From positions 106,384 to 170,383 of the forward strand of contig JAZLEQ010000018.1 in NCBI GenBank assembly GCA_045615365.1: DNA of 64,000 bases, in the 5' to 3' direction. Each line of letters opens with the position of its first letter. Position 1 is the first letter of the stretch. Below the pieces are notes generated by a model. It searched no databases, was not told the DNA's origin, and saw only the letters and a list, made by a program, of their open reading frames with translations. Shown piece by piece: positions 8,085 to 60,919 of the stretch. A program made the position numbers and the translations under genes. The DNA comes from Alphaproteobacteria bacterium. Its GTDB lineage: Bacteria > Pseudomonadota > Alphaproteobacteria > RF32 > CAG-239.

Positions 8085-8094
8085 AAAAAATTTT

Positions 8095-8130: not shown

Positions 8131-8179
8131 TTGCCATCTGTTTTCAATACAATTATATTATCCTTTCAGGAGAATAAAT

Positions 8180-10995: not shown

Positions 10996-12546
10996 TTAAT
11001 GCTGAAAATCAGACTTTAAAATGTGAATTGGCTTTATCTGATGTGCTTTCTCACACATTTCTGCACGATAATCACCTTTATATGCATTTGCATTGCCGAT
11101 AGAAAACGACATATCTTCAAAAGCTTCTTTTCCATTACCGCCTCTTTCAATTACTCTTTGCAAATTCCAAACTTTGTCATCATCATAATCATATTCAGAT
11201 ACAACCGAACGGAAAAATTTGGTCATTTTTTCATGAAGCGACATATCTGCCAAACTTTCCATTTTTTTATTTCCCATATAATCAACATACAGTTGAGCAA
11301 TATCCAAAACTAACTGCTCTCTGTTTTCTTTCTCATTTTCCACCAAATTCCACAATCCGCAAATTCTAACCGGATTACTTGTTGTTTTTTCAGCTTGTTT
11401 AAACAAATTTTCAGCATAGTTTATTGCATTATCATAGCTATAATTTCCATCATTTTCCCCTAAAGGATTTTTTTGAATTGCTTTGTTATTTTTAGCCAAA
11501 CTTTCAATATTTTCTCTCAATTCATTCAATCTCGAAAGTTTTGCTTTTCCTTTGATTTGAACATTTATCGTATTTAAAATTTCATCAACATCTTTATTTG
11601 TATAATCTGCTGCTTCAAAAGACAAAACCGCCAACCTTTTCATCTGATTAGCTAAATTCTCATTAAAACAATCACCTATTTTCACATGCTCAACATAAGC
11701 CTTATAAATATCACAAACCGCCTTTTTATCCAAAACTCTTTTTTCACCACAATACCTTGCAGTTTTCTGAGCCGACATTGTTTTAGTAGCCAAATAACGC
11801 AAAACAGCAATATCAAGCTCGCCATCAACTTTATCAGCCATCATAAAAAACATTTTTGCATAATCTGAAACTGCAGAATTGTGAACAAGCTTAATATTTT
11901 TAGCATATACTTGAAACATCTCAAAATAAGTTTTTACTTTAGTCTTTCCCGCTTCATTTCTTCTTTTTTTACTGATATTTTCCACTGATACTTTATACAA
12001 GCTATCTAAGTCGTTTTGTTTCAAATCATGAGGATTAATAGATGCCAAAACCTTCAAACTTTCTCTTGAAATCAGACTAACACCGTTTTTATCTTTTTTA
12101 TCAAGATAACCATTAGCAACCAGATGCTCCAACAGTCTAAATTTATCTAAAGAAGTTGAAGGCTTTTCACAAAAAACATCATTAATATAATTCAATCCGT
12201 CATTTAAAAAATGGTGTGAATTCATATTCAGTTTTTTTCCCCGCAACTCACCTTTATAATAAACTTCTTTTACCTTCCACCAAAAATGACCGTTGATTTG
12301 TTGTTTATCTTCTAATTTTTCAAATTTTGCCATATAGGCTTTAAGACTTTCGTAAAATACTTTTTTATTTTTCTCACTGGCATCAACTTCTTTGTTATAC
12401 GTCTCATCTTCTTTTAATTTGCCTTCCAAGCCCCCATTAGCAAAAAATTTACAACGAGCCTGTTCTCGTCGCCCGACTGCCAATGCATAATCAAGCAACT
12501 TTTGTTCTACAGACAAACATCTTTCATCTTTAGATAAATCCATCAT
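10996..12546 (-). CDS. Large ORFan hypothetical protein (516 aa), K/E/D/N-rich, no signal peptide
   Basis: Long uninterrupted ORF with no recognisable motif, wedged between uvrA and rpsU. Confidence 0.5.
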   Translation of the reverse strand: MMDLSKDERCLSVEQKLLDYALAVGRREQARCKFFANGGLEGKLKEDETYNKEVDASEKNKKVFYESLKAYMAKFEKLEDKQQINGHFWWKVKEVYYKGELRGKKLNMNSHHFLNDGLNYINDVFCEKPSTSLDKFRLLEHLVANGYLDKKDKNGVSLISRESLKVLASINPHDLKQNDLDSLYKVSVENISKKRRNEAGKTKVKTYFEMFQVYAKNIKLVHNSAVSDYAKMFFMMADKVDGELDIAVLRYLATKTMSAQKTARYCGEKRVLDKKAVCDIYKAYVEHVKIGDCFNENLANQMKRLAVLSFEAADYTNKDVDEILNTINVQIKGKAKLSRLNELRENIESLAKNNKAIQKNPLGENDGNYSYDNAINYAENLFKQAEKTTSNPVRICGLWNLVENEKENREQLVLDIAQLYVDYMGNKKMESLADMSLHEKMTKFFRSVVSEYDYDDDKVWNLQRVIERGGNGKEAFEDMSFSIGNANAYKGDYRAEMCEKAHQIKPIHILKSDFQH

Positions 12547-12644: not shown

Positions 12645-12697
12645 AAACAAGCACAATTGGATTAACCTTTTAACTATAATGAAATGGGGTGATTTAA

Positions 12698-12904
12698 GTG
12701 GTTCAAGTTACTGTTATTGGTAATGACGTTGGACAATCTTTGAAAGTTTTGAAGAAAAAAATGCAACGTGAAGGCATTTTCCGCGAAATGAAATTGCGTC
12801 GTTGTCACGAAAAAAACTCTGAAAAGAAAGCTCGTCGTCAAGCTGAAGCCGTTCGTCGTGCTCGCAAACAGTTGCGTAAACGCTTAGATACTGAAGGATT
12901 CTAA
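12698..12904 (+). CDS. rpsU: 30S ribosomal protein S21
   Basis: 68 aa, GTG start; [56 protein letters not shown] matches alphaproteobacterial S21. Confidence 0.9.
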
Positions 12905-13528: not shown

Positions 13529-15712
13529 TTAAGCTATTTTTAATTCAGCCATAACCTCCTTCTTCAACGTCACATTATCTGCTTTACCTGTTGCAAATAC
13601 AGGTAACGATTCGCGATAAACAATAGTGCGCGGAAGATAAAGTTCGGGCAATCCATTTTGCTTAATGTAAGTATGCAAACGATCATTGGTGGCTTTTTTA
13701 TTGTTGGTAGCAAGAACAATTTGCTCACCTTTGGTCTCATGAGGAACGGCAACAATACCATAAGCCCACTCAACACCGTCAGCTTCCAAAGCTTTAACAA
13801 CTGTTTCGTGAACGGCATTAAGCGATACCATCTCACCCCCGACTTTAGCAAAACGTTTGATACGGTCACGAATATAAACAAAACCGATTTCATCAATCTC
13901 AACCACATCGCCGGTATGATACCAACCATCCTTAAGCGGAACCAAAACTCCGGGATTATCAGGCATAATATATCCCATCATCACATTCGGACCTTTAACC
14001 CAAAGCTCTCCGCCCTTCTCGATTCCGTCAACCGGAACAATCTTGTGCTGAATTTTAGGCAACAACTTACCGATAGAACCGAAACGATTGAAAATACAGT
14101 TATTTGCAGTAACCACCGGAGCGCATTCGGTTGAACCGTAAGCTTCTTTAACACTGACTCCCAATCTTTCACCCCAAAGGTTGCGAGTATCAGGTTTAAC
14201 GGCTTCAGCACCGCCATACATAATTCTGATACTACGGAAATCCATCGGGTGAGCAATTTTAGCATATCCGCGGAAGAAGGTGTCTGTTCCAAGCAACGCA
14301 GTTGCACCGATTTCATAAGAAAGCTCAGCAATAATACGATAATGCAACGGCGACGGATAAAGGAACAATTTTGAACCTCTGAACATTGGGAACAAAGTTC
14401 CCACTGTTAAGCCGAAACTATGGAACATCGGAAGCGCGTTAAGCAAAATATCCTTAGTTGTTAATGTTTCAATACAGCTCAACTGATCAACGTTTGAAAT
14501 AATATTTTCATGACTTAACACAACTGCCTTAGGAGCACCTTCCGAACCGGAAGTAAACAAAATGACTGCTTTTCTGTTTCCGCCTTCCGGATGAGGAACA
14601 CGTTTGGTTTTATATCTGATATATGCACCCAACTTATCTTTCAAGGTGAGATGTTTACGCAGTTCTTCCAAATAAAAGATTTTGTAACCGGCTTTGCGCA
14701 ATTCATCAATCACATCTTCCATCTTGGCATTACGAATAAACATATGTGATGTAATAACTGTTTTAACTTGCGCAGTATTACACATCGACACCATATTTTT
14801 CGAACCCACCGAGAAGTTCAACATAACCGGAACACGGTTATATGCAGACAAACCGAAGAAAGTGCAAACCGTTGCCAACGCATTAGGCAACAACAACGCA
14901 ACGTGCTCCTCCGGATTCGTCATCTTTTTAAAGAAACGTCCCAAAACAAAAGATTTAATAACAATATCCTTATATGAGTTTGGTTCGCGGTTAATATCTT
15001 CAAAAAATTTAACACGACGAAACCAACCCTGCTTGGAGTTTACTTTAGCCACTTTCATCAACATCGCAAACAACGAAATATTCTCGTTATGAGCAGCATC
15101 AAAACACATATCACGCATAATCATATAAACTTCGTTGCTGATATGGTCACGTTGACGACGCAATTCATCTTTCAACTTAAATTTAACAGGTTTTCTTACC
15201 GTAATTGTAATTCTCGGCAACGGACGATGAGGCAATTTTCCCTTTGTTTTTGAGAAATAACCGAATTGCGGACCATCAATCCAAACCGGCACAATCGGAG
15301 CACCCGACTTATCGGCTGCCAACCCGGGAGCTTCGTAAATTTTCATCAACCCGCCATTATCTGTCATACGACCTTCAGCAAACATAACACAGCATCTGCC
15401 ACTATCAATCTTTGCGATAAGTTCTTTCAAATCGCCGGGTTCAATCGGATTAAACGGCATCACATCGGCTGTCTGCATCAACATCCTAATCCATTTATTA
15501 CGATATAGGTGCCCGTTCAACGCAAAAATGGGATTCCCCGGTAAAAATGCAAACAACATAATTGGGTCTAAGAAAGACACGTGGTTAGAAATATAAACCG
15601 CCTTTGTCGGAAGTTTATTTTCATCAAACTGAATATTGCATCTCACCTTAAAAACGTTAAACACAACACGCAAACAAAACCTAACAATATTTCTCACAAG
15701 TAAATCCTCCAA
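13529..15712 (-). CDS. aas: Bifunctional 2-acylglycerophosphoethanolamine acyltransferase / acyl-ACP synthetase (Aas-like)
   Basis: 727 aa. N-terminal PlsC-type acyltransferase with NHVSFLDP (HX4D) motif; C-terminal AMP-binding adenylation domain (…ILFTSGSEGAPKAVVLSHENI…, …YGSTEC…, …GWYHTGDV…). Length matches E. coli Aas. Confidence 0.75.
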   Translation of the reverse strand: MEDLLVRNIVRFCLRVVFNVFKVRCNIQFDENKLPTKAVYISNHVSFLDPIMLFAFLPGNPIFALNGHLYRNKWIRMLMQTADVMPFNPIEPGDLKELIAKIDSGRCCVMFAEGRMTDNGGLMKIYEAPGLAADKSGAPIVPVWIDGPQFGYFSKTKGKLPHRPLPRITITVRKPVKFKLKDELRRQRDHISNEVYMIMRDMCFDAAHNENISLFAMLMKVAKVNSKQGWFRRVKFFEDINREPNSYKDIVIKSFVLGRFFKKMTNPEEHVALLLPNALATVCTFFGLSAYNRVPVMLNFSVGSKNMVSMCNTAQVKTVITSHMFIRNAKMEDVIDELRKAGYKIFYLEELRKHLTLKDKLGAYIRYKTKRVPHPEGGNRKAVILFTSGSEGAPKAVVLSHENIISNVDQLSCIETLTTKDILLNALPMFHSFGLTVGTLFPMFRGSKLFLYPSPLHYRIIAELSYEIGATALLGTDTFFRGYAKIAHPMDFRSIRIMYGGAEAVKPDTRNLWGERLGVSVKEAYGSTECAPVVTANNCIFNRFGSIGKLLPKIQHKIVPVDGIEKGGELWVKGPNVMMGYIMPDNPGVLVPLKDGWYHTGDVVEIDEIGFVYIRDRIKRFAKVGGEMVSLNAVHETVVKALEADGVEWAYGIVAVPHETKGEQIVLATNNKKATNDRLHTYIKQNGLPELYLPRTIVYRESLPVFATGKADNVTLKKEVMAELKIA

Positions 15713-39880: not shown

Positions 39881-40968
39881 TGAACGATTTAAGCATATAT
39901 TTCCATTGGCCCTATTGCCTGAGCAAATGCCCTTATTGCGATTTTTTCTCTAAAGTTAAAAAAAATATCGAACAAGACGAAATCATTAGGGGCTATTTGC
40001 TCTCTTTGGAAAAATATGCCGAATTCTTAGGCAATAAAAACCAAATTATCTCTGTGTTTTTCGGCGGAGGAACCCCATCGCTCATCAAACCGCAAAATAT
40101 TGAGCTTCTGCTAAACAAAATCCAAAAATTGTGGCCCCTTGCTTCAAATATTGAAATATCACTGGAAGCCAACCCCAACACTCAAACACCTACATTATTT
40201 GCCGATTTGGCTCAAGCTGGAATCAATCGTCTTTCTCTAGGGATTCAATCATTAGACGACAATCAATTAAAATTTTTGGGACGAACTCACAATTCCAAAC
40301 AAGCTCTAACCGCTATTGAAGACGTGAAAAAAAACTTTTCCAATCATTCTGTTGATCTCATATATGCCCTGCCCACACAAACAATCGCATCTTGGCAGAA
40401 CGACCTCAAAAAAGTTACCTCTCTTGGCATGAAACACATTTCTCTTTATCAGCTTACCATTGAAGAAAACACTTTCTTCCATAAAAAAGGCATCAAACCT
40501 GCCGATGAAGAAACAGCATCGCAAATGTATTTATTAAGCGAAGACACCTTAGCTCAAAAAGGCTATGATAAATATGAAGTTTCAAATTATGCTCAAAAAG
40601 ACTTTGAATCGGTTCATAATCAAGTATATTGGAAAGGCGGAAACTATATCGGTATCGGCGAAACAGCTCATGGTCGTCTGAAAAAAAACGACAAATTCTA
40701 TGCCATAACACATCCCATGCAATTTGAAGAACTCTCCCCACATGAACGTGCCGAAGAATTGATTATCATGGGGCTCCGCCTTGTTAGCGGCATTCATAAG
40801 GCTGATTTTGAAAAAAATTGCGGAATTGATATCAACAATATAATCAATAAAGAATTTAAGGATAATGCCATCAAAGAAGGATTGCTGAAAGAAACCTCTT
40901 CCCACTTATTTGCAACCAAACAAGGTTTTTTATTACTTGATTATCTTATCAATGGTCTTTGTTGTTAA
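39880..40968 (+). CDS. hemW: Radical SAM heme chaperone HemW (HemN-like, oxygen-independent coproporphyrinogen-III oxidase family)
   Basis: 362 aa; …IYFHWPYCLSKCPYCDFFS… CX3CX2C motif, …FFGGGTPSL…; start overlaps the hslU stop. Confidence 0.85.
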   Translation: MNDLSIYFHWPYCLSKCPYCDFFSKVKKNIEQDEIIRGYLLSLEKYAEFLGNKNQIISVFFGGGTPSLIKPQNIELLLNKIQKLWPLASNIEISLEANPNTQTPTLFADLAQAGINRLSLGIQSLDDNQLKFLGRTHNSKQALTAIEDVKKNFSNHSVDLIYALPTQTIASWQNDLKKVTSLGMKHISLYQLTIEENTFFHKKGIKPADEETASQMYLLSEDTLAQKGYDKYEVSNYAQKDFESVHNQVYWKGGNYIGIGETAHGRLKKNDKFYAITHPMQFEELSPHERAEELIIMGLRLVSGIHKADFEKNCGIDINNIINKEFKDNAIKEGLLKETSSHLFATKQGFLLLDYLINGLCC

Positions 40969-41867
40969 TCCGTAACATTAAAATTTCCATTAACTAAAAT
41001 CATTATCAGCGCCAAAAAAAACAACATCGCAAAACCTGATTTTTCGGTAAAACCACCGCTCACCTTAGAATCTCTGGTCAATAAATATACAAACACCGGC
41101 GCTGTCAGCAACAATGTCACCACATACCCCGGATTTGGCGCTAAACGCATTGCCATAGTTTTAGCTGCAATTAGTGCTGCCGAAAATCCCACAATAAAAA
41201 TTCCGGTTGCAAGCACCTCTTTGGCAAAAACCATTTTCACAGTCAAAACAACATTATAATGCTTATGTCTCAACAACAAAATTAAATTATAAAACCCCGA
41301 AACAAATGTTGAAACAGTTAAATAATACAATATATTCGCCCACACATCCTGCCCCATCATGGCGATTTCTTTTGTTGCAACACTCATCCCCGCTAAAGCC
41401 AAAATCGCCGGAACCATATACCAAAAAGCATCTCGGCTTATCCTGCTTTTCATCACATACCAATAACAAACACAAAATCCGAACATTGCCAAAAGTAATG
41501 TGATAAAAACACTTTCATTATGCAAAAGATTTAAGAATAACTCCGGTGTCAATCCCCACCACATAAAAGTTGTAACCAAAACACTCAATACCGATAATCG
41601 TGAGGTTGCTCCTGCTCCATAACGTGCTGAAGCAAAAAAGACATGAGAATCATAAATTCCTATCAAAACCCCTTGAATCAGTAAAAGTTCCCAGTTACGT
41701 ATATCTGTTTGCAACGGCACCAAAAATAAAAAAGGTGCAAAAATCAGCGCAATACCAAAACCTCGCCAAACCCCCAACACATAGCCATTAAATTTGTGCC
41801 TTTGATTCACAAGGGTGTAAAGTGCCATAAAAAAACCATATATCAATCCGTTAATTATCCAAAGCAT
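40965..41867 (-). CDS. Polytopic integral membrane protein (about 10 TM; possibly DMT/EamA-like)
   Basis: 300 aa, hydrophobic throughout; family assignment uncertain. Confidence 0.4.
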   Translation of the reverse strand: MLWIINGLIYGFFMALYTLVNQRHKFNGYVLGVWRGFGIALIFAPFLFLVPLQTDIRNWELLLIQGVLIGIYDSHVFFASARYGAGATSRLSVLSVLVTTFMWWGLTPELFLNLLHNESVFITLLLAMFGFCVCYWYVMKSRISRDAFWYMVPAILALAGMSVATKEIAMMGQDVWANILYYLTVSTFVSGFYNLILLLRHKHYNVVLTVKMVFAKEVLATGIFIVGFSAALIAAKTMAMRLAPNPGYVVTLLLTAPVFVYLLTRDSKVSGGFTEKSGFAMLFFLALIMILVNGNFNVTD

Positions 41868-51603: not shown

Positions 51604-52527
51604 TTATCTTTGTTTTTCGACCTGTTTTAACAAAAGTTTTTTATTTTTCTGCAACATTTTTCTAAGTTCTTTTTGTTTTTGATAAATTCTGGCTCTTCCT
51701 GCCACCCAGTTATATATTTTCTGCATTGTTTTATCGCCTTTACTTGCAAAATTTTCCGGATGCCACTGCACACACAAAACCTTTTCATCCTCATTTCCCC
51801 AGGCTTCAGGAACGCCGTCTTTTCCGCATGCATAAATTTTCAAATCACTGCCACTTGTATCCGGCACCATAGCCTCGTTATGTCTTGAATTAACAACAAG
51901 TTTTTTCTCACCCAACAATTCATATAACGGCGAATCCGGAATAATTGATATTTCATGAGCTTCCGAATTTTTTGTTTTATGTTCAATACTTGTATTTACA
52001 TATTCCTTCACATTTCTAAGCATTTTCATCTTATGCATACCGCCGACAATTTGCGCTCCGGCACATATCCCCAATATCGGCATATTAGCTTTTTTAGCTT
52101 GCAATATTGAAGTTACATAAGCATACGAACGATCACCGGGTTTGTTATTAGTTTTCTTTAGAGGGTCTGTATAAAATTCATCCGGCGAATCAAACGAACC
52201 TCCGGGTAAAATAAGCCCATCGGCATTTTCCATTTGCATAACATTTTCGCCATACGTTAAAAATATAATATTAACATTACTCTGAGCAATTGCTTTGGCA
52301 TAATTAAAATCAATAGTATAATGCCCCTCTTCTCTTCCCAGTAAAAAAGCTATTGTCGGAGCATTTTCTTTTGGCAGATTGCAACCGAGTTTTTCATAAT
52401 CTTCTTTTTTTAATGATATTAGCGGCAAACACCCTTCTTTAGTTGTTTTTTCCACAACCCTGTCAGATATTCCAAATGCATTATATTGAGGCAGGAATTC
52501 AAGATTTAGATTTTCTTTTTTCATCAT
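51604..52527 (-). CDS. Gamma-glutamyl-gamma-aminobutyrate hydrolase family protein (class I glutamine amidotransferase-like, peptidase C26)
   Basis: 307 aa; nucleophile elbow …PILGICAGAQIV…, …LPGGSFD…, …VQWHPE…. Confidence 0.7.
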   Translation of the reverse strand: MMKKENLNLEFLPQYNAFGISDRVVEKTTKEGCLPLISLKKEDYEKLGCNLPKENAPTIAFLLGREEGHYTIDFNYAKAIAQSNVNIIFLTYGENVMQMENADGLILPGGSFDSPDEFYTDPLKKTNNKPGDRSYAYVTSILQAKKANMPILGICAGAQIVGGMHKMKMLRNVKEYVNTSIEHKTKNSEAHEISIIPDSPLYELLGEKKLVVNSRHNEAMVPDTSGSDLKIYACGKDGVPEAWGNEDEKVLCVQWHPENFASKGDKTMQKIYNWVAGRARIYQKQKELRKMLQKNKKLLLKQVEKQR

Positions 52528-52676: not shown

Positions 52677-52752
52677 GCCGACATAGCTCAGTTGGTAGAG
52701 CTACTGATTTGTAATCAGTGGGTCGGGAGTTCGAGTCTCTCTGTCGGCACCA
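52677..52752 (+). tRNA. tRNA-Thr (anticodon UGU), CCA encoded
   Basis: Cloverleaf read by hand: acceptor GCCGACA/TGTCGGC, D-arm GCTC-AGTTGGTA-GAGC, anticodon stem ACTGA/TCAGT with loop TTTGTAA, T-arm GGGAG-TTCGAGT-CTCTC, 3' ACCA. Confidence 0.85.
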
Positions 52753-52754
52753 TT

Positions 52755-52786
52755 AAAAAATCCCCCTTTCATGGGGGATTTTTTAA
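52755..52786 (+). terminator. Intrinsic terminator after tRNA-Thr (aaaaaatccccc / gggggatttttt)
   Basis: Perfect hairpin plus T-run. Confidence 0.65.
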
Positions 52787-52789
52787 TGG

Positions 52790-52935
52790 TTTTCGCCAGA
52801 GGCCGCGAACTCACGAAGAAAGGGAGTTTGACTAGGAGGAGCAGGCGAGACGGAAGTATCGCCGCACTTGCGACGACGAAGCGGCCGAGCATTTTATATG
52901 CGAGGTCAGTCTCTCTGACAGCCCTCAAGGGCTGT
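52790..52935. repeat. Repeat copy A of a ~140-bp element (tttcgccagaggccNcgaactcacNaagggagtttga … cagtctctctgNcNgc) with a degenerate tRNA-Thr 3'-end-like tail
   Basis: Its first ~43 nt are ~93% identical to 60022-60064. Its end (52907-52924, cagtctctctgacagccc) resembles the tRNA-Thr 3' end gagtctctctgtcggcacc. Confidence 0.5.
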
Positions 52936-53159
52936 TCAGATATTCTGCACCAGTTTTCCAAGGGTTTCAGAGTTTTCTGAAATCCTTATTTTTTTGGTGC
53001 TACACAGGTGCTACATTTTTAAATCAGATCTTTGTGTTTAAATATAATTGCTAAGATTTTACAAAAATGTATGAAGCAAAATAATTGTTATTTGTTTGCA
53101 TTTTTTAAATAAATTTAAATTTTATATGTTACAATTCTCTTTAGTATGAGGATAAAAGA

Positions 53160-54023
53160 ATGTTATTACACTTATTAATTAATACTTTGATTGTCGGGTC
53201 TGGCTATGGTTTGGTTGCCATGGCTTTTCGTCTGATGTACTCTGTTTCGCCATTTTTTAATATGACGCTCGGCGCAATAGCCGCTTTGGGAGCTTATACA
53301 GCCTATTGGTTGCTAAACCTTGGCACACCATTGCCGGTAGTGGTGGTTGCTGCACTGTTGATGAGTGCTTTATTTTCGAGCTTTTTAGAAATTTGTATAT
53401 ATACTCCTATGCGCAATCACGGTGCTTCTTCAATGATTTTGATGGTTGCATCTTTGGGTGTTTATACGATTTTTGAATCGGTTATTCACTTGATTTTTGG
53501 TCCACAATATCAAACTTTGGGCAACATTAACTCTGCAATCAATGTAAATTTAGGTTTTGTAAACATTCCGTTGGTGCAGTTTTTAACCATTATTGCTAAT
53601 ATTGTAGTGTTTGTTTTCTTAAATTACTTTTTACATCATACATTTACCGGAAAACAAATCAGAGCGGTTAATGATAGCTCTACCTTGGCCAATATAATTG
53701 GTATGAAAAACAACCAAATAATCTTGTTGGTATCGGTTTTGACCGGTTTAATTCTTGGCTTAGACGGTGTTTTGGTCGGATATGATACCGGAATGGAGCC
53801 GACAATGGGCTTTAATTTGTTGTTTAAGGGAATGATAGGTGCAATTATAGGCGGACTTGCCAACTTGCGTGGAGCTTTCTTTGGAGCGCTTTTCTTAGCC
53901 TTAGCCGAAAATGTCGGAGTGTTGTTGTTTGCTTCGGAATGGCGCGATTTGATAGCCTTTGTGATATTTATTACATTTTTATCGCTTCGCCCGAAAGGAA
54001 TTTTTCAAAAAAAAGGAGAATAA
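53160..54023 (+). CDS. livH: Branched-chain amino acid ABC transporter permease, LivH-like
   Basis: 287 aa, 8-9 TM, BPD_transp_2-type membrane protein. First gene of the T/G-rich cassette. Confidence 0.7.
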   Translation: MLLHLLINTLIVGSGYGLVAMAFRLMYSVSPFFNMTLGAIAALGAYTAYWLLNLGTPLPVVVVAALLMSALFSSFLEICIYTPMRNHGASSMILMVASLGVYTIFESVIHLIFGPQYQTLGNINSAINVNLGFVNIPLVQFLTIIANIVVFVFLNYFLHHTFTGKQIRAVNDSSTLANIIGMKNNQIILLVSVLTGLILGLDGVLVGYDTGMEPTMGFNLLFKGMIGAIIGGLANLRGAFFGALFLALAENVGVLLFASEWRDLIAFVIFITFLSLRPKGIFQKKGE

Positions 54024-54028
54024 AAGAA

Positions 54029-55144
54029 ATGAAAAAGGTTTTATTGAGTTTGATGATGGCGACATCTTTGGTTGCTTGTGGTGAAAAAGCCGAGGCTCCG
54101 AAAGAAAACGAAAAACCGATTATAAAAATCGGCGCGACTTTACCTTTGACAGGTGATGCAGCGGAGGCTGGACAGGCTGCAAAGGCCGGACTTGAGATGG
54201 TTTTAGATGATTTGTCGCAAAAGGGACTAAAATATGATTACAGGCTTATTTTTGAGGATAACCAGATGAATCCTCAAAAAGTGGCTACTACCATAAACAA
54301 AATGGTAAATATTGATAATGTCAAAGCGGTGCTATCATTTTGGAACCTAATGGGTAATGTTTCGTCGGCTTTGGCAGAACAAAATAATGTTTTTTCATTT
54401 ACTTGCTCTATTGGCGAGGATTCGACCAAAGGAAAGTACAATTTTAACAATTATGCTTCAAATTATCAACAAGCGGAAGTATTGGTTGAAACCTTAAAAG
54501 AGTACAATGTTAAGACTGTTGCACTGTTTACGGATAATTCCGGTATGCGCCATCAGTTTGAAGTTGTAAAAGACTATATGAAGAATCATTCTGATATTGA
54601 GATTGTGTTTGAAGAGTTCTTTAACCCCGGAGAAAAAGATTATAAAGCAGCAATAATCAAAGCTTCGACAAAAAATCCGGATATGTATTTGTATTCAGGG
54701 TATAATCCTTCAACCTATATTTTTATGAAGCAACTCAAAGAAATTACCGGCAAGAATAATAACGTTACCACTATTGATATGTTTTTTGATATGGCTGTTA
54801 AGGACCGTGATATTATTGAAGGATTGTGGTATGTTGATTCTAATTTGAACGGAACAAAAGAATTTCAAGACAGGTTATTAAAGGAAAAGGGCTTAGTTTC
54901 GCAGTCTTGCACAGGTAATACAGCTGCAAATTTGGAAATTATTGTTAACGCATATGAAAATGCTCTTGTATCTGAGGGCGAAACTATCCCGAGTAATGAT
55001 GCTGTCAGAGATTGGATTTTTGCTAATGTTAAAGATTTTGATACTGTTGGCGGTAGAGTTTCAGTTGTAAGAGAAGGATTGTTTGATAAAAAACCATCGA
55101 TTAAAAAAATGATAAATCGTGAACCGGTTGTGGTGGAGGAATAA
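54029..55144 (+). CDS. ABC transporter substrate-binding lipoprotein, Liv (PBP type I) family, paralog 1
   Basis: MKKVLLSLMMATSLVACGEKAEAPKENEKPIIKIGATLPLTGDAAEAG…; lipobox LVAC. The track ORF 53939.. is an upstream extension. Confidence 0.75.
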   Translation: MKKVLLSLMMATSLVACGEKAEAPKENEKPIIKIGATLPLTGDAAEAGQAAKAGLEMVLDDLSQKGLKYDYRLIFEDNQMNPQKVATTINKMVNIDNVKAVLSFWNLMGNVSSALAEQNNVFSFTCSIGEDSTKGKYNFNNYASNYQQAEVLVETLKEYNVKTVALFTDNSGMRHQFEVVKDYMKNHSDIEIVFEEFFNPGEKDYKAAIIKASTKNPDMYLYSGYNPSTYIFMKQLKEITGKNNNVTTIDMFFDMAVKDRDIIEGLWYVDSNLNGTKEFQDRLLKEKGLVSQSCTGNTAANLEIIVNAYENALVSEGETIPSNDAVRDWIFANVKDFDTVGGRVSVVREGLFDKKPSIKKMINREPVVVEE

Positions 55145-55153
55145 TATTAAACC

Positions 55154-56020
55154 ATGGAATATTTAATTAACTTAGCGATTTTATTTGGTATATATTCAAT
55201 GTTGGCGTTGTCGCTCAACTTGGTGGTTGGTATGAGCGGGCTTGTGTCTTTGGCTCAAGCGGCGTTTTACGGTATTGGCGCTTATGCTACGGCTATCGGC
55301 ATGACATCGTTGGGGTTGGGCTTTTTTACAACCATTTTGTTCGGAATGATTATAAATGCTCTTGTTGCCTTTGTAGTGGGTAAAATCTTGGCTCGTTTCC
55401 AAGGCGATATATATGCTATTGTTTCGGCGGGATTATCTATTATTGTCTTTTCAATTTTACTGAACTGGAAATCTGTAACCAACGGACCTTTGGGAATTTT
55501 CGGAATCGGAAAGCCTGAAATCGCCGGATATGCTTTTTATTCTAATTCGGCATTTTTGATGCTGACCTTAGTCTTTACCCTTGTGATTTTTGCAATTTAT
55601 TGGTGGATTGACAAATCTTCTTTCGGACGAGTCTTAAAGGCTCTGCGCGAAGATGAAAAACTTACACAAATCATGGGATACAAAACCAAATATTATAAAA
55701 GTGTGATTTTTGTATTGTCAGCGGCTTTATCGGGAATAGCAGGTTCGTTTTTTGCCAGCTATATTGCATTTATCGACCCATCAACATTTCAGCTTAAAGA
55801 AGGTATCTTTTTGTTTACAATCATTATTGTCGGAGGATTGTCATCAGCCAGAGGAAGTGTGATTGGTGCATTGATTCTCATATCTTTGCCCGAGATTTTG
55901 CGTTTTATCGGTCTGCCCTATGAAACAGCCGCTCAAATGCAACAAATTATTTATGGTGCAATGTTGTTGCTGATGATGATATTCAAACCACAAGGCCTGT
56001 TCGGAAAGTATAGGATGTAA
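55154..56020 (+). CDS. livM: Branched-chain amino acid ABC transporter permease, LivM-like
   Basis: 288 aa, polytopic, glycine-rich TM helices typical of the LivM/BraE family (shorter than E. coli LivM). Confidence 0.65.
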   Translation: MEYLINLAILFGIYSMLALSLNLVVGMSGLVSLAQAAFYGIGAYATAIGMTSLGLGFFTTILFGMIINALVAFVVGKILARFQGDIYAIVSAGLSIIVFSILLNWKSVTNGPLGIFGIGKPEIAGYAFYSNSAFLMLTLVFTLVIFAIYWWIDKSSFGRVLKALREDEKLTQIMGYKTKYYKSVIFVLSAALSGIAGSFFASYIAFIDPSTFQLKEGIFLFTIIIVGGLSSARGSVIGALILISLPEILRFIGLPYETAAQMQQIIYGAMLLLMMIFKPQGLFGKYRM

Positions 56021-56025
56021 TATAA

Positions 56026-56841
56026 ATGAAAAAAGTAACAGATATATTAAATTTCAAAAAACTACAATCGGGAGTGGCGTGTGATGCAAAAATAGCTTCG
56101 CCGTATGGTTTGGATATTATTACTTGTAAGGATCTTAATAAGCAATTTATGGGGATTAAAGCAATTGATAACCTCTCAATTGCAATTCCTCAGGCGATGA
56201 CTACCGGTCTGATTGGCCCTAACGGCTCGGGCAAAACAACCTTGATGAACATTTTAACCGGTATGCTAACTCCGGATTCCGGCGAAATAACGATTCGCGA
56301 CAAAAAACGTAATAGAGTAAAATCTCACGAATTGCGAAAATATCGCATGGCACGCACATTCCAAGACGGACGCCTTATTGAACAGCTTTCGGTAGAGGAC
56401 AATCTGTTGCTTCCGGTGGCAGAAAATTCATTGGTTGAGGCTTTGAAGGAGATTAAAACAGATGATTATAAAGCTCGCATGGAGAAAGTGCTAGAGATGA
56501 CATCGCTGACTGCTCATCGCTTTAAGAGAGCCGAAGAATTGTCTTATGGTTTGCGCAAACTCTTAGAGGTCGGCCGAGTATTGATGCAAGATGCCGACAT
56601 ATATTTCTTTGACGAGCCGTTTACCGGTCTGTTCCCTGAGGTTGTGGAACAAGTTTGCGGTATCATCGGAGGCTTACAAAAACAAGGTAAAACAATAGTG
56701 ATTATTGAACATAATATGGGACTGATTAAGCGCCTGAGTGATTATATAATTGTGCTTAACCATGGTGCGTTAATGGCTGAGGGCAAGCCGGATAGTGTCT
56801 TGCAAAACAAAGACGTCCGCGAGGCGTATTTGGGCGTATAG
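56026..56841 (+). CDS. livG: ABC transporter ATP-binding protein, LivG-like
   Basis: 271 aa; Walker A GPNGSGKTTLMNILTG, signature LSYGLRK, Walker B IYFFDEP, C-terminal branched-chain-type extension. Confidence 0.8.
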   Translation: MKKVTDILNFKKLQSGVACDAKIASPYGLDIITCKDLNKQFMGIKAIDNLSIAIPQAMTTGLIGPNGSGKTTLMNILTGMLTPDSGEITIRDKKRNRVKSHELRKYRMARTFQDGRLIEQLSVEDNLLLPVAENSLVEALKEIKTDDYKARMEKVLEMTSLTAHRFKRAEELSYGLRKLLEVGRVLMQDADIYFFDEPFTGLFPEVVEQVCGIIGGLQKQGKTIVIIEHNMGLIKRLSDYIIVLNHGALMAEGKPDSVLQNKDVREAYLGV

Positions 56842-56908
56842 AAATAATGTCATAGCGAGGAGAATAGCGACGAAGCTATTTTGGCTAATTAAAAAGAAAG
56901 GAAGGGAT

Positions 56909-58009
56909 ATGAAAAAGGTTTTATTAAGTATAATGATGGCTTTTAGCTTAACCGCCTGTGGGGAAAAAGCCGAAACTCCGAAAGAAAACGAAAAGCCGGT
57001 GGTGAAAATCGGTGCAACCTTGCCTTTAAGCGGTGGATTTGCCGAAACCGGTGTTTTGAGCCAACAGGCAATGCAAATGGCATTGGATAAATGGAAAGCA
57101 AAAGACACTAAATATGATTATCAGTTGTTTGTAGAAGATGATGTTTCAGAGCTTAAAAAAGCTGTTTTGAATGCTCAAAATTTTATCAATACTAAAAAAG
57201 TACAAGCTATTATGACAATGTTTGGTATTGTTGATAGACCGGTTGATGAAATTGCCAACAACAACAAGGTTATCAGTTTGTCTTGTTCTTATGGCAAAAC
57301 AGATGTTTTAGAATATGCGGCCAATAATTGTGTGCAAAATCATCGCGTTGCTGAAACATTACTTCCAAAATTAAAAAAAGAAAATATTAAAAAAGTAGCT
57401 TTAATTATGGCAAATACGGCTGTTAATCGTGTTGTCGGTGATTATTTTGCCGAAAGATTGCCTCAAGAAGGTTTTGAAGTTGTGGCTTATGAAAAGTATA
57501 ATATGGATACTCGCGATATGAGAATGTCGATTTTAGCCATGGAAGAAAAACAACCGGATTATTATCTTACTTTTGCAACACCCCCTCTAACAGATATTTT
57601 TGTAAAACAGCTTCAAGAAACCGTCGGTAAAAGAAATGTAGCTTCTTTTGGCTCATTTCCTGAGATGGATCCGGCGTTGTTTCCGTTGGTTGAAAATTTG
57701 TGGACAATTTATTCGGTTGCCGGAACAGATGAATTTGCAAAAGAATTTGAAAATAAAACCGGCAGTGTGTTAAAAAGTTGTAATGCCAATTCTTATGATA
57801 ATATGGATATGTTGATTTGGGCTTTTGAAAATACTCCGGTAAAAGAGGGAAAAGTTTTGCCTGATACGGCTGATGTCGCCGCTAAGTTGAAGAGTATAAA
57901 AAATTGGCAAGGTGCTACGGGAAATGTATCTTTTGAAAATGGCGTAATCAGTCCTAAAGCAGAATTGAGAATGTATCAAAACGGAAAATGGGTTAAGATT
58001 GAGGAATAA
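56909..58009 (+). CDS. ABC transporter substrate-binding lipoprotein, Liv family, paralog 2
   Basis: MKKVLLSIMMAFSLTACGEKAETPKENEKPVVKIGATLPLSGGFAETG…; RBS aaaggaagg. The track ORF 56795.. is an upstream extension. Confidence 0.75.
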   Translation: MKKVLLSIMMAFSLTACGEKAETPKENEKPVVKIGATLPLSGGFAETGVLSQQAMQMALDKWKAKDTKYDYQLFVEDDVSELKKAVLNAQNFINTKKVQAIMTMFGIVDRPVDEIANNNKVISLSCSYGKTDVLEYAANNCVQNHRVAETLLPKLKKENIKKVALIMANTAVNRVVGDYFAERLPQEGFEVVAYEKYNMDTRDMRMSILAMEEKQPDYYLTFATPPLTDIFVKQLQETVGKRNVASFGSFPEMDPALFPLVENLWTIYSVAGTDEFAKEFENKTGSVLKSCNANSYDNMDMLIWAFENTPVKEGKVLPDTADVAAKLKSIKNWQGATGNVSFENGVISPKAELRMYQNGKWVKIEE

Positions 58010-58013
58010 AAAT

Positions 58014-59117
58014 ATGAAAAAAGTTTTACTTAGTTTGTTAATGGCGACATCTTTGGTTGCTTGTGGAGAAAAAACAGAAGCTCCAAAGGATAATGGTAAA
58101 CCGACAATCAAAATTGGAGCAACCTTGCCTTTGAGTGGCGATTTGGCATATATTGGTGTTGGTGCTAAAAATGCTTTGAATATGGTTATGGAGAAATGGC
58201 AACAAAAAGATACCAAGTACAATTATCAGATTGTTTATGAAGACGATATGGTTAAGCCCAAGCAAGCTGTTTTAAATACTAATAAGTTTATAAATGTTGA
58301 TAAAGCAAATGTTGTTATTTCGGTGTTTGGTGTAGTTGACAGACCAGTTGATGAGATTGCTAACAAAAATAAAGTTATCAGCCTTTCTTGCTCTTATGGC
58401 AAAAATGATGTACCAGCATATGGATTCAACACCTCACCGCAAAATGAAGAGATTTATGTCGCATTACTTAAAGAACTCAAAAAGAGAAATGTTAAAACGG
58501 TGGCTTTGTTAGGAAGCAATGCTGCTGTGAGTAATGTTTTGTTGGGTTATACCGCAGAACACTTACCAAAAGAAGGAATTGAAGTTGTTTTTAATGAAAG
58601 ATATAATTTAGGCGAAACAGATTTTCGCTTGTCTATTCAAAAAATGGAACAAAAAGCTCCGGATTATTATGTTTTGTTCGGAGTTGAGCCGATGAACAGT
58701 ATTTTTGTACGCCAATATTATGAATTGACTGGTAAAAAGAATGTTACTTCAATGGGAACTTTTCCTAACATTAGTACAAAAGTTTTTCCGGCAATAAATG
58801 GTATATGGTCAGTATATGTGGTTGGTAACAGTGACGATTTTGAAAAGGCATATTTTGAAAAACATCAAGATCGAGTAGAAGCATGCTCTGCCAACTTATA
58901 TGATGGTTTGGATATGATTATCAATGCTTTTGAGAACACATCTCCGAAAGAAAATGAAACCATAGCTAACAATGCCGATGTCTTACAAATGATTAGGTCC
59001 CCTAAGGTTTGGGACGGCGTTTCAGGAAAAATGAAGATTGAGCCTAACGGATGCGTGCGCATGGACGTTCCTGTTCGAGAATACCAAAACGGAGAATGGG
59101 TTAAGATTGAGGAGTAA
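58014..59117 (+). CDS. ABC transporter substrate-binding lipoprotein, Liv family, paralog 3
   Basis: MKKVLLSLLMATSLVACGEKTEAPKDNGKPTIKIGATLPLSGDLAYIG…; RBS gaggaa. N-terminal ~25 codons nearly identical at the DNA level to paralog 1. Confidence 0.75.
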   Translation: MKKVLLSLLMATSLVACGEKTEAPKDNGKPTIKIGATLPLSGDLAYIGVGAKNALNMVMEKWQQKDTKYNYQIVYEDDMVKPKQAVLNTNKFINVDKANVVISVFGVVDRPVDEIANKNKVISLSCSYGKNDVPAYGFNTSPQNEEIYVALLKELKKRNVKTVALLGSNAAVSNVLLGYTAEHLPKEGIEVVFNERYNLGETDFRLSIQKMEQKAPDYYVLFGVEPMNSIFVRQYYELTGKKNVTSMGTFPNISTKVFPAINGIWSVYVVGNSDDFEKAYFEKHQDRVEACSANLYDGLDMIINAFENTSPKENETIANNADVLQMIRSPKVWDGVSGKMKIEPNGCVRMDVPVREYQNGEWVKIEE

Positions 59118-59149
59118 AAATATGAAAAAGGTTTTGTTGAGGAGTAAAA

Positions 59150-59848
59150 ATGCTCGAGCTTAAAAATGTTAATGCCGGATATGGCAAAAAAATGGTGTTG
59201 AGTAACGTTTCGGTTAAGCTTAATGATAACACTATTACCGTTGTTATGGGACCAAACGGTGCGGGCAAATCAACATTGTTAAAAACAGCTTATGGTTTGA
59301 TAAAAACATCATCAGGCGATATTTTGCTTGATGTCAAAAAAATCACTCCAACCCCGCAAAAATTGGTTGAACTTGGAGTTTTTATGGTGCCGCAAGGAAA
59401 ACGTGTTTTTCGCAATATGACCGTTATGGAAAATCTTGAGCTTGCATCTCATTTTTGGAAAGACAGATCTATATTTCCTCAGCGATTGGACGAGGTTTTA
59501 GCTCATTTTCCCGATTTGAAAGAACGATTAGATGATTTGGCAGGAAATCTCTCAGGCGGACAGCAGCAAATGGTCGCTTTGGTTCGCGGACTTATCAATA
59601 AACCCAAAATGGTGTTTATGGACGAGCCATCGATCGGTTTGTCACCTAAATTGATTAACGACACTTTCCATAAGATTAAAGAAATAAAAGACAATATGGG
59701 AACAGCTTTTGTTATTGTAGAGCACAACCTTAAAACTTTACTTCCTCTTACCGATTGGGCTTATATCTTAGATCAGGGAAAAGTGATTTATGACGGCAAA
59801 TCCGAGGGTAAAACCCTAGAAAAAATGGTCTCTGCTGTGTTTAAATAG
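59150..59848 (+). CDS. livF: ABC transporter ATP-binding protein, LivF-like
   Basis: 232 aa; Walker A GPNGAGKSTLLKTAYG, signature LSGGQQQMVALVRGL, Walker B VFMDEPSIGL. Confidence 0.8.
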   Translation: MLELKNVNAGYGKKMVLSNVSVKLNDNTITVVMGPNGAGKSTLLKTAYGLIKTSSGDILLDVKKITPTPQKLVELGVFMVPQGKRVFRNMTVMENLELASHFWKDRSIFPQRLDEVLAHFPDLKERLDDLAGNLSGGQQQMVALVRGLINKPKMVFMDEPSIGLSPKLINDTFHKIKEIKDNMGTAFVIVEHNLKTLLPLTDWAYILDQGKVIYDGKSEGKTLEKMVSAVFK

Positions 59849-59983
59849 TTAATATAAATCTCTTTTCATATGAGGGTAGCGGTCGAAAAAATCTTGTATT
59901 TGCAATGCGGTAGCATATAATTCCTCAATATTCATCTCTCTAAAAGGTTCGAAGAATGCTTCAATACTCGCACCATTAAAACA

Positions 59984-60010
59984 AAAATGCACCCTTGTGG
60001 TGCTTTTTTT
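59984..60010 (+). terminator. Intrinsic terminator (gcaccc ttg tggtgc + T7), preceded by an att-like caccattaaaacaaaaa copy
   Basis: Hairpin plus T-run. The preceding 17 nt (59971-59987) repeat the sequence that follows the tRNA 3' end duplicate at 60156-60175. Confidence 0.55.
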
Positions 60011-60021
60011 GTTTTAAATTG

Positions 60022-60161
60022 TTTCGCCAGAGGCCTCGAACTCACAAAGGGAGTTTGAAACTTCTCTTAACTTTGTGAGGTAAAACCGAAACAAAGTTTA
60101 GTTGTTCGCGCAAGTAGAAAGCGTCAGCTTTCGTAGCGGCGCAGTCTCTCTGTCGGCACCA
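60022..60161. repeat. Repeat copy B of the ~140-bp element; ends in an exact 25-nt duplicate of the tRNA-Thr 3' end plus flank (agtctctctgtcggcaccattaaaa), putative attR
   Basis: 60022-60064 matches 52790-52835 (tttcgccagaggccNcgaactcacNaagggagtttga). 60143-60167 is identical to 52734-52758, the tRNA T-stem 3' strand + acceptor 3' strand + CCA + ttaaaa. Confidence 0.6.
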
Positions 60162-60205
60162 TTAAAACAAAAAAAGGAGAGTTTTGAATACCCTCCCCTT
60201 TTTTA

Positions 60206-60919
60206 TCATAACCGATACGTTGCAGAATTTCCATACTCATCATAAAGATGAACTTTAGCAAACCCTTTTCCTGTTGTTATATCAATAAACGCATCCTTCG
60301 CATAAAACGAAAGCTTTTGATTTTGATATAAACTAAAATAATAATCTTTGCCCTTAAGTGAAACTTTAAGTTGCCCAAAATAGCGCTCAAAGACCATATC
60401 TCCGACACTAATACGAACAGGAGCCTCAAAATCACCCCAAAGATAATAACCGAGCATGGCATCAAAATACCTATCATCATAACGCATATGACGTATAAAT
60501 CTGTTGGTATATCCCCTCCATTTAATCCAAGTCCAACTGTCAAAAACACAGTCATAATGATGGTGGCGATAACTTTCATGATGTTTATACTCCGGTTTCC
60601 AACCTTTACGCTGTGGTTGAGGTGGTGGAGTTACGGAATATGGCTTCAACACATGATTCCTCTGTTGCACCCCAGGTCTGTAAGGCATTCCAACCGGCAT
60701 ATCCGAACGATAATTATCCTGTTTTGGCTTTCCCTTACGAGAATAATTTGGTCTAGATTTATCTCGTCGTGTCTGACTTTGAGATGAAGAATAACTCTTT
60801 TCCGAACGTGTTTTAGTATTATATCTTTGCATTTCACGTCCTCTTGCTTCTTGCGCGTAACCTTGAACTGCAAAAAGCACAATAGCCGACATAGCTATAA
60901 ATAAAAACTTTCCTTTCAT
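60206..60919 (-). CDS. Hypothetical secreted protein (237 aa), basic and low-complexity (S/Q/R/K/P/Y-rich) in its N-terminal half
   Basis: Signal peptide (…AVQGYAQEA); no recognisable domain. Confidence 0.45.
   Translation of the reverse strand: MKGKFLFIAMSAIVLFAVQGYAQEARGREMQRYNTKTRSEKSYSSSQSQTRRDKSRPNYSRKGKPKQDNYRSDMPVGMPYRPGVQQRNHVLKPYSVTPPPQPQRKGWKPEYKHHESYRHHHYDCVFDSWTWIKWRGYTNRFIRHMRYDDRYFDAMLGYYLWGDFEAPVRISVGDMVFERYFGQLKVSLKGKDYYFSLYQNQKLSFYAKDAFIDITTGKGFAKVHLYDEYGNSATYRL

Follow-up and report, generated by a model that had tools for sequence, protein, structure and literature searches.

The window analysed here is a stretch of 64,000 nucleotides (nt) of an alphaproteobacterial genome (contig JAZLEQ010000018.1), with a G+C content of ~37%. 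For the most part it carries flagellar genes, uvrA, ack-pta, recJ, glmM and similar housekeeping genes, as identified by Pfam. It contains a single tRNA gene, tRNA-Thr(UGU), located at 52677-52752 on the plus strand by both ARAGORN and Rfam (72.6 bits), with an encoded CCA. This gene is the functional anchor of the locus, and it ends at 52752 as the initial annotation of this DNA had stated. The last 41 nt, the stretch compared, are identical in the relatives that we designate L002, L005, L006 and L007. Downstream of the tRNA lie a seven-gene liv-type transporter operon and a number of short palindromic repeats derived from the 3′ half of the same tRNA. Our analysis shows that the repeats belong to a family that exists independently of the operon, and that the operon, with its flanking sequence, is a cassette that has evidently been acquired horizontally and is mobile.

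The cassette is, on its predicted gene content, a complete LIV-type ATP-binding cassette (ABC) transporter operon of the HAAT family, with three lipoprotein binding proteins and its own promoter and terminator. All seven genes lie on the plus strand. A promoter-like site (TTTACA-16-AATAAT) was found by a promoter scan at 53058-53085, in a region conserved with L021 and L025. It is followed by a livH-type permease (53160-54023; PF02653, 5.3e-32), substrate-binding protein (SBP) 1 (54029-55144; PF13458, 3.1e-29), a livM-type permease (55154-56020; PF02653, 4.3e-44), a livG-type ATPase (56026-56841; PF00005 and PF12399), SBP2 (56909-58009; PF13458, 4.2e-30), SBP3 (58014-59117; PF13458, 3e-31) and a livF-type ATPase (59150-59848; PF00005, 4.7e-30). 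Thus the gene order that had been read from the open reading frames (ORFs) alone is confirmed by Pfam, which finds two BPD_transp_2 permeases, two ABC_tran ATPases, one with a BCA_ABC_TP_C tail, and three Peripla_BP_6 proteins, with E-values from 1e-27 to 4e-44. LivH is 94-96% and LivF 95-97% identical in amino acid (aa) sequence to the proteins of L021, L025 and L026. SBP1, which has a lipoprotein-type signal ending LVAC, is only 27-38% identical to the binding proteins of most other cassettes, and 79% identical to that of L024.

The transporters of the LIV-I/HAAT class (TC 3.A.1.4) likewise combine two permeases with two ATPases and use at least two Peripla_BP_6 proteins per translocator, familiar examples being LivJ/LivK-HMGF of Escherichia coli and the rhizobial Bra system with several binding proteins. 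What sets the present operon apart is that the SBP genes are interleaved with the core and carry lipoprotein signals, and that related loci have from one to seven of them, at different positions and 27-38% identical between loci, beside cores that are 94-97% identical. The binding-protein genes look as if they were shuffled as modules via conserved junctions, and a repertoire so variable beside near-identical cores points to rapid retuning of the substrate range in the gut. The three SBP genes of the window share a conserved 5′ segment of 142 nt that encodes the lipoprotein signal peptide (54016-54157, 56896-57037 and 58001-58142; family D1, 73-78% identical). A 54-nt repeat of a 3′ end and the next start (57974-58027 and 59082-59135; family D2, 93% identical) includes the SBP2/SBP3 junction, and outside these shared segments the gene bodies differ. 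Some liv cassettes that are collinear in other respects have an additional gene inside them: in L021 one for a DUF559 (Vsr-like endonuclease) protein (11603-11941), and in L029 one for a methyltransferase (7969-8901).

The cassette lies between two copies of a repeat that we term units A and B. The initial annotation had described copies of ~140 bp, and they are indeed present, at 52792-52937 and 60022-60161 respectively, both on the plus strand; they were delimited by repeat comparison and by alignment with relatives (L025 in the case of B), and for A also by folding. Unit A contains an inverted copy of the T-arm and acceptor strand of the tRNA (52795-52814) and then GGGAGTTTGA (52822-52831). 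Beyond its centre, which is G+C-rich, come a degenerate copy of the tRNA 3′ end, CAGTCTCTCTGACAGC (52907-52922), and a hairpin (52918-52935). Unit B is built in the same manner, with an inverted T-arm copy (60026-60045), GGGAGTTTGA (60049-60058), a centre of its own and a perfect tRNA 3′ end CAGTCTCTCTGTCGGCACCA, CCA included (60142-60161). The 23-nt 5′ arm TTCGCCAGAGGCCnCGAACTCAC has just two matches in the 64 kb, at 52792 and 60023, where shuffled sequence gives an expectation of 0.00. In both units the arm corresponds, imperfectly, to the reverse complement of the tRNA's T-arm plus acceptor strand. GGGAGTTTGA repeats the 5′ half of the T-stem and some of the T-loop in direct orientation, and the last 16-20 nt likewise repeat the T-loop (its 3′ part), T-stem and acceptor strand. 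Both units have CAGTCTCTCTG(A/T)C(A/G)GC at their 3′ end. The 5′ arm can pair with both direct pieces, and a closed multi-hairpin fold is predicted for each unit. The plus strands fold better than shuffled sequences (z = -2.3 and -2.6), while the minus strand gives z = -1.5. The ~80-nt centres of A and B do not align.

The end of unit B is part of a 25-nt exact duplicate of the tRNA 3′ end, AGTCTCTCTGTCGGCACCATTAAAA, present at 52734-52758 and 60143-60167 (repeat family D15) just as had been claimed; tested as a 20-mer it gives two matches against 0.00 expected. Compared with the tRNA trailer of L021 and L025 the duplication spans 31 nt. It is followed by a bidirectional terminator (60169-60203, the whole feature occupying 60143-60203 by repeat and terminator scans) that is shared with a minus-strand gene at 60206-60919. 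A third, partial copy had been placed at 59971-60010; this is real, and longer than stated. Aligned with L021 and L025, the stretch 59946-59987 reads GGTTCGAAGAATGCTTCAATACTCGCACCA+TTAAAACAAAAA, that is, a decayed T-loop, acceptor strand and CCA (the tRNA end proper being 59946-59975) with the trailer, and it continues into a terminator palindrome (hairpin 59989-60003) to give a feature of 59946-60019 on the plus strand. To these can be added a fourth, minimal remnant, CTGCACCA at 52945-52952, found in the terminator scan with its terminator (52960-52987) and T-run (52945-52996 in all, plus strand). The functional tRNA itself ends in a perfect 18-nt inverted repeat (I6; ACCATTAAAAAATCCCCC / GGGGGATTTTTTAATGGT, 52749-52790), a bidirectional terminator palindrome that includes the ACCA end and is terminator-like on both strands over 52761-52777. 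Thus a hairpin or terminator follows every tRNA-end copy (52761-52777, 52918-52935, 52960-52987, 59989-60003 and 60169-60203), as expected if each copy once terminated a functional tRNA gene. No sigma-70-like promoter precedes unit A or B on either strand, and both units lie between bidirectional terminators.

How general are these units? The 5′ arm was scanned against one genome per species for 185,579 species, and was found in four MAGs (metagenome-assembled genomes) of gut 'Alphaproteobacteria bacterium' with 32-39% G+C. Four further matches, in genomes of 52-66% G+C, are due to chance, as is a metagenome match (L015) with 58% G+C; all five fall inside coding sequences. Chance matches aside, the element is therefore confined to low-G+C alphaproteobacterial MAGs, where it follows tRNA-Thr or lies in arrays at contig ends. 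Type A units stand directly after tRNA-Thr and its terminator in L002, L005, L006 and L007, and are tandemly repeated in L002, L007 and L009, whose contigs often end within the array. These loci share the flanks of the window: g582, g156 and glmM upstream, and in L005 and L009 the Na/Ca exchanger downstream, L009 having in addition weak relatives of hyp237, g365 and g142. No liv genes were found at the type A loci of L002, L005, L006, L007 and L009. Unit A is 92-96% identical to the units of these five, for which the identity of glmM is only 74-75%.

A metagenome scan revealed a third type, C, in another lineage. In L018 the tRNA-Thr and its terminator are followed by one C unit that ends in CTCTCTGTCGGCACCA+TAAAAA and a terminator, without cargo between; here a unit ending in a tRNA-end duplicate lies ~180 bp from the tRNA. 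L017 has two C units between the same flanks, so unit number varies within the lineage. The fourth type, D, of ~220 nt, separates tRNA-Thr from livH in L021 and L025. We may thus define a family of G+C-rich, palindromic units of 135-220 bp, derived from the 3′ half of tRNA-Thr and located directly downstream of it in related gut Alphaproteobacteria, singly or in tandem and with or without the cassette. All four types have a common architecture of terminator, inverted T-arm copy, direct T-arm half, variable centre and tRNA 3′ end. Their centres differ greatly: A and C align in part and share a short CGAAGCG with D, and B cannot be aligned. A unit in L006 (25-100, minus strand) begins as type A and after ~77 nt, right before the end of the contig, passes into a centre that is unrelated; it may be a fifth type or a recombinant.

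The tRNA-end duplicate is built into types B, C and D, and degenerate in type A; it was therefore not produced by the arrival of the liv cassette. This bears on the first interpretation of the locus, in which A and B were the integration borders (attL and attR) of the cassette. That assignment does not hold, given that type A follows tRNA-Thr in relatives that have no cassette, often in tandem, and that the C unit of L018 has no cargo. The alternative offered at the time, a repeat family that had captured the tRNA end, was closer to the truth as far as the repeats themselves are concerned. The classical signature of integration at a tRNA gene was in part correctly read: the linkage to the tRNA and the distal 25-nt repeat stand, while the repeat was not created by insertion of the cassette.

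Other readings of the units were tried and rejected. Alignment of A, B and C with MAFFT and RNAalifold gave a common structure of -5.8 kcal/mol in which the first hairpin of B was misaligned, and hence no usable consensus. One- and two-piece transfer-messenger RNA, Y-RNA-like and retron readings found no signal in Rfam or ARAGORN and no partner genes. A small minus-strand ORF in unit A overlaps the tRNA, and its substitutions lack codon periodicity.

The evidence for transfer of the cassette is of three kinds, and begins with discordant sequence identity. In a collection of 5.8 billion proteins the best relative of GlmM is 83% identical, while LivM has 16 clusters at 94-97%. In L025 the operon occupies the same chromosomal locus, and LivH, LivM, LivG and LivF are 94, 95, 87 and 96% identical to those of the window, compared with 73, 53, 43 and 64% for the flanking GlmM, g582, g156 and Na/Ca exchanger. 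At the nucleotide level glmM of this pair is 70% identical, the liv core 81-92%, and the block of livF, terminator and unit B 91.5%. In L026 the Liv core is 94-95% identical, against 61-80% for two housekeeping proteins. The operon is also highly similar in unrelated contexts, with a nucleotide identity of 86-92% in L021 and L026; for L022 and L023 the figure is 91-93% across livM and livG.

The second line is patchy distribution. We find the cassette in at least four genomic contexts. Its neighbour is glmM in the window and L025 and an LPG-synthase gene in L021, in each case with tRNA-Thr. Without tRNA-Thr it adjoins LPG-synthase in L029 and L030, dnaG-rpoD in L023, yqeY in L022, genes of an unrelated 41% G+C contig in L026, and tRNA-Arg/Pro in L032 and L033. 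Synteny around tRNA-Thr was compared as the initial annotation had proposed, and the cassette is not present at the syntenic loci of L005 and L006+L009. The closest GlmM relatives, at 83 and 79%, proved uninformative on the cassette, being encoded on 5-kb contigs of which L020 ends in tRNA-Thr and L019 ~300 nt past glmM. In L026 the operon is flanked by other direct repeats, CCCT(T/C)AATGTTAC(T/C)ATGTTGAG, at 7690-7760 and 12690-12740, each of which is a small hairpin.

The third line is strand composition, for which all ORFs of at least 150 aa in the window were surveyed. The 31 minus-strand genes have a GC skew at third codon positions (GC3 skew) of +0.37 on their own strand, and the 17 plus-strand genes outside the cassette one of -0.42 ± 0.11, all between -0.22 and -0.66. 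From so strong a bias it follows that the minus strand of the window is the leading strand; about two thirds of the window's genes are co-oriented with it. The seven cassette genes, on the plus strand, have a skew of +0.19 ± 0.08 (range +0.11 to +0.33). The impression that the cassette is T/G-rich relative to its surroundings is thus upheld as a third-codon skew, though its G+C content, at 0.38, is ordinary. The same contrast is found for the cassettes of L021 and L025, and in L026, where the flanking genes have weak skew, the cassette has +0.1 to +0.26. That the cassette keeps one composition wherever it sits is what would be predicted of DNA whose movement outpaces its equilibration. Since discordant identity, patchy presence in several contexts and anomalous GC3 skew all agree, horizontal acquisition is the conclusion to be drawn, and the cassette is a foreign segment linked to the 3′ end of tRNA-Thr, much as was first proposed.

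Where are the ends of the mobile segment? The homology between the window and L021 is ~92% throughout, and runs from exactly 52947 (GCACCAGTTTTCC...) to 60019, just past the terminator next to the decayed tRNA end. The window has TTCAGATATTCT before GCACCA, and L021 the 3′ end of a D unit, CTCTCTGTTG, giving the left junction ...CTCTCTGTTG|GCACCAGTTTTCC. The homology breaks at the same GCACCA sites despite unrelated upstream DNA, and so the alignments define the cargo-bearing unit as 52947-60019. Its left border is GCACCA, and its right border CTCGCACCA+TTAAAACAAAAA and a terminator, the same sequence as that after the functional tRNA-Thr in L021 and L025. These borders fall inside the interval originally annotated and do not coincide with the unit ends, again at odds with A and B as an att pair; they carry only decayed tRNA-end copies (52947 and 59946-59975). 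Between L021 and L025 the homology extends from the first base of tRNA-Thr through the right-border terminator, and no further.

Unit B is also found at the right end of the L025 cassette, within the 91.5% identical block, though read from the sequence this copy has several changes that disrupt stem pairing in the first hairpin. The L025 tRNA and D unit have TGTTGGC, while the B unit has TGTCGGC, the variant of the window; this mixture indicates mosaic ancestry. The two sequences belong to variants of the tRNA-Thr acceptor stem that differ by a compensatory pair, GCCGACA/TGTCGGC and GCCAACA/TGTTGGC, as seen on comparing L025 5124-5199 and L021 6179-6254 with 52677-52752 of the window. The D units match the acceptor variant of the adjoining tRNA, and the B unit of L025 has the other one.

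The cassette has no evident means of moving itself. No recombinase, transposase or excisionase domain was found in 50 scanned ORFs, most of at least 180 aa and including all those within ~10 kb of the cassette, in agreement with the first reading of the locus; outside the scan were six ORFs of 150-176 aa, one of 300 aa (40965-41867) and shorter ones. Integrase-bearing elements do use tRNA-Thr as a target, as two contigs show. Viral contig L010 encodes a 448-aa tyrosine integrase (Phage_integrase and DUF6538) directly beside a tRNA-Thr with an identical 3′ 35 nt, and L011 is a prophage end, where the host terminator and then a C unit come after a displaced 3′ half of tRNA-Thr that starts in the anticodon loop. 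In L016 (971-1101, minus strand) a partial tRNA-Thr, with the same starting point, runs straight into a C unit; the fusion point is GGGAGTT|TGAC, and the end of an HlyD-like gene lies alongside. This junction may have arisen because the unit served as a secondary site or, given its microhomology, by deletion between two T-loop-like sites.

The explanation that we favour, with slightly better than even confidence, is one of accreted att-type remnants together with one cargo-bearing unit that lacks an integrase, resembling a cis-mobilizable element (CIME). The region after tRNA-Thr(UGU) would be a recombination hotspot built from insertion remnants stacked at the tRNA 3′ end. Each insertion would bring a new tRNA 3′ end and terminator, and displace the older end and terminator downstream. 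The several decayed tRNA-end copies, each with a terminator, bear out the earlier suggestion of serial events. Most inserts would decay to gene-less bodies of 135-220 bp, so that units A, B, C and D are probably decayed integrative elements, while one unit, 52947-60019, would have retained or captured the liv operon. The cassette would be a recent acquisition from another gut alphaproteobacterium, lying head-on to replication and presumably still with the strand composition of its donor. The borders shared with L021 suggest that GCACCA and the tRNA-end sites act as att sites. As to what moved the cassette, we infer either a tRNA-Thr-specific integrase of a co-resident element, which would act in trans on these sites in the style of CIME accretion, or homologous recombination via the conserved tRNA and unit sequences after uptake of DNA. 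Candidate recombination sites are the T-arm of tRNA-Thr, the tRNA-end copy of the units and the palindrome TCGAACTC...GAGTTTGA. Site-specific excision would leave either a circle junction ...AATACTCGCACCA|GTTTTCCAAGG... or an empty site ...GCACCA|TTAAAACAAAAA..., and if the decay model is correct there should be an intact element with a terminator and inverted T-arm on its left, and GGGAGTTTGA...GCGAGG(T/A)C on its right.

A number of observations weigh against this explanation. All four unit types have the inverted T-arm copy, of which a model of scars gives no account. Type A is 92-96% conserved where glmM is at ~75%, and its substitutions avoid the stems, affecting 7 of 90 paired columns compared with 13 of 57 unpaired ones (Fisher p = 0.013), so that a structured-RNA role has to be entertained. 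The outermost tRNA-end copy is perfect and the inner ones decayed, an arrangement not predicted by a simple order of age. No tRNA-Thr-specific integrase was found at the loci of this clade, and the integrase family of L010 failed as a lead, its homologues occurring only at tRNA-Leu(CAA) in prophages of high-G+C Alphaproteobacteria. Nor was an intact parent element with an A, B, C or D body found: viral contigs had no matches for the A, B or D centres or the 5′ arm, and plasmids none for A, B or the whole cassette. Lastly the liv operon occurs without tRNA-Thr in L026, L022, L023 and L029, and tRNA-linked insertion is thus not its only route.

The conservation of type A leads to a different view, in which the units are genes for a structured non-coding RNA family that arose from the 3′ half of tRNA-Thr and was tandemly amplified, and among which the cassette landed. 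They might be expressed from the plus strand by read-through from the tRNA, or from the minus strand as terminator-ended small RNAs. The folding of the plus strands of both window copies agrees with this, as do the tandem arrays with an intrinsic terminator for each unit and the enrichment of the 20 variable columns of type A, a sequence conserved like the tRNA region, in unpaired positions. Moreover three type A changes keep G-U pairing on the plus strand only, while the minus strand, read from the sequence, has a CUCCUCC stretch and a strong terminator at its end. Yet in Rfam 15 only the tRNA was matched, with no match for a unit even at E-values up to 10 and the best of the others far below thresholds, and neither strand of either unit is preceded by a sigma-70-like promoter, with bidirectional terminators on both sides. 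There is not a single compensatory pair among eight A copies. The four centres, with B lacking alignable similarity, do not show a graded, compensated divergence, and the stem-breaking changes in the B copy of L025 are uncompensated. What all types share is the tRNA-derived sequence, and this fits an origin by recombination. We therefore regard an RNA family with a chance arrival of the cassette as unlikely, though the most credible of the alternatives. It is less likely still that the units are functional, structure-specific docking sites, attC-like and anchored at a tRNA, with the recombinase encoded elsewhere, or else an undescribed structured-RNA family from the tRNA 3′ half. Were they docking sites they would constitute a cassette-capture platform, letting recombinase-less operons such as liv move between gut Alphaproteobacteria.

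The remaining alternatives are more remote. The liv operon could be ancestral at tRNA-Thr and have been lost from relatives by recombination between units, its conservation being due to selection and its skew to a local inversion. The operon does occupy the glmM-tRNA-Thr locus in L025 as well, together with the B unit, and directly repeated units would favour deletion. But in that very genome pair the core is 81-92% identical where glmM is 70%, the operon is highly similar in the unrelated contexts of L021, L026, L022 and L023, and the skew anomaly is alike in three host genomes. Furthermore the flanking repeats are direct rather than inverted and so cannot invert the segment, and we consider this account very improbable. 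The contig could instead be a chimera of metagenome assembly, with the cassette of a co-occurring species threaded in through the shared tRNA-Thr and unit repeats. The window is indeed a MAG contig, related contigs often break at the tRNA or within arrays, and a chimera would also yield anomalies of identity and skew. However, the repeat shared at the distal side covers only 25-31 nt, below the final k-mer size of the usual assemblers, and no other contig has the left junction TTCAGATATTCT|GCACCA. It is above all because independent MAGs from other samples (L021 and L025) repeat the junction sequences, along with the skew contrast, that we hold an assembly artefact to be highly improbable. The units might finally be non-autonomous transposons of the MITE (miniature inverted-repeat transposable element) kind, with terminal inverted repeats that resemble the T-arm by chance, and the cassette a composite element. 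They are short and repeated, with a 5′ arm and a 3′ end that are imperfect inverses of each other. Against this there are no dispersed copies, as all matches in the clade are at tRNA-Thr or in contig-end arrays and the 64-kb window has only two; there is no target-site duplication beyond the tRNA end; the ORFs scanned include no transposase; and the borders of the cassette differ from the unit ends. Of all the explanations considered we give this the least credence.

Our preferred reading, of accreted remnants and a recombinase-less cassette, can be placed among known systems. MITEs have dispersed copies with terminal inverted repeats and target-site duplications, while the present units are restricted to tRNA-Thr or contig-end arrays. 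The attC sites of integrons are likewise imperfect palindromes with conserved ends and variable centres, bounding a promoter-distal series of segments. But there is no IntI, attI or Pc here, the cargo of 7 kb has its own promoter, the centres are separate hairpins rather than one long stem, and the borders GCACCA|GTTTTCC and CTCGCACCA|TTAAAAC do not fit the GTTRRRY core (RYYYAAC...GTTRRRY). Islands targeted to tRNA genes are closer. Williams is said to have set out a scheme of sublocations for such prophages and islands with tyrosine integrases in 2002. As in these, the cassette is located at a tRNA 3′ end, also in L021 and L025, with a distal direct repeat of the 3′ part of the tRNA, a foreign composition and a patchy distribution; the incoming copy restores the tRNA, and L010 and L011 are found at the same one. 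It differs in having no integrase, and in that the bracketing repeat comes from a pre-existing unit family and was not made by insertion.

CIMEs descend from integrative and conjugative or integrative and mobilizable elements by the loss of integration and transfer genes while attL and attR are kept, accumulate in tandem at the 3′ end of the target gene, and are mobilised once a related element has integrated next to them; site-specific accretion at tRNA genes is known for example in the ICESt1-related elements of Streptococcus (PMC5704250). The cassette resembles them in lacking integration and transfer genes. In contrast to CIMEs, no parent of the integrative and conjugative or integrative and mobilizable type was found in the viral contigs or plasmids searched, nor any partner element with a matching integrase; the hosts are uncultured gut Alphaproteobacteria, and the remnants are far smaller, with a conserved palindromic architecture. 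Dehalococcoides provides a further parallel. Downstream of its single-copy ssrA gene are stacked islands on a scale of 10 kb, of which 16 of 31 have a six-gene integration module that includes a serine recombinase (McMurdie et al. 2011, PMC3146451). As here, segments are stacked after one small-RNA gene, with direct repeats of its 3′ end from the T-loop and a short motif just upstream, and their metabolic cargo is phylogenetically discordant with the core genome (PMC3146451). The units at tRNA-Thr differ in that most are gene-less and of 135-220 bp, have no recombinase, and each have the extra inverted T-arm copy. Thus tRNA-linked islands, accretion and recombinase-less remnants were known. 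The novelty lies in the clade, in arrays of tRNA-derived units that are very small and uniform in architecture, and in a cargo that consists of a nutrient-uptake operon.

Current models are not overturned by this locus, whose value lies in being a clean natural example and a testable hotspot. It would exemplify how a nutrient-uptake operon without mobility genes spreads through gut Alphaproteobacteria that are uncultured and have small genomes, at a site used by phages and islands as well. In addition, metagenome assemblies are broken at this position by a repeat family that is lineage-specific and derived from a tRNA, which is relevant to the quality and annotation of MAGs.

Some further features were observed at related loci and elsewhere in the window. 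In L025 a small serine recombinase gene (14997-15593, plus strand; Resolvase, 2.4e-30) lies 1.5 kb beyond the cassette. It has an anomalous positive GC3 skew like that of the cassette, and a ddl gene with native skew lies between the two. Prophages with DUF6538 integrases in L038 and L039 are preceded by partial 3′ ends of tRNA-Leu(CAA), at 9840-9880 and 9815-9870 respectively, with other mobile or defence genes upstream; this is ordinary accretion at a tRNA gene. Within the window, a peptidase C26 / glutamine amidotransferase gene of native skew (51604-52527, minus strand) lies between glmM and tRNA-Thr. It is not at that position in any relative examined, L025 having a hexapeptide-repeat gene instead. 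Finally, an orphan Peripla_BP_6 protein of 373 aa is encoded at 6294-7415 on the minus strand, beside flagellar genes and far from any permease or ATPase genes, with a native GC3 skew of +0.43.

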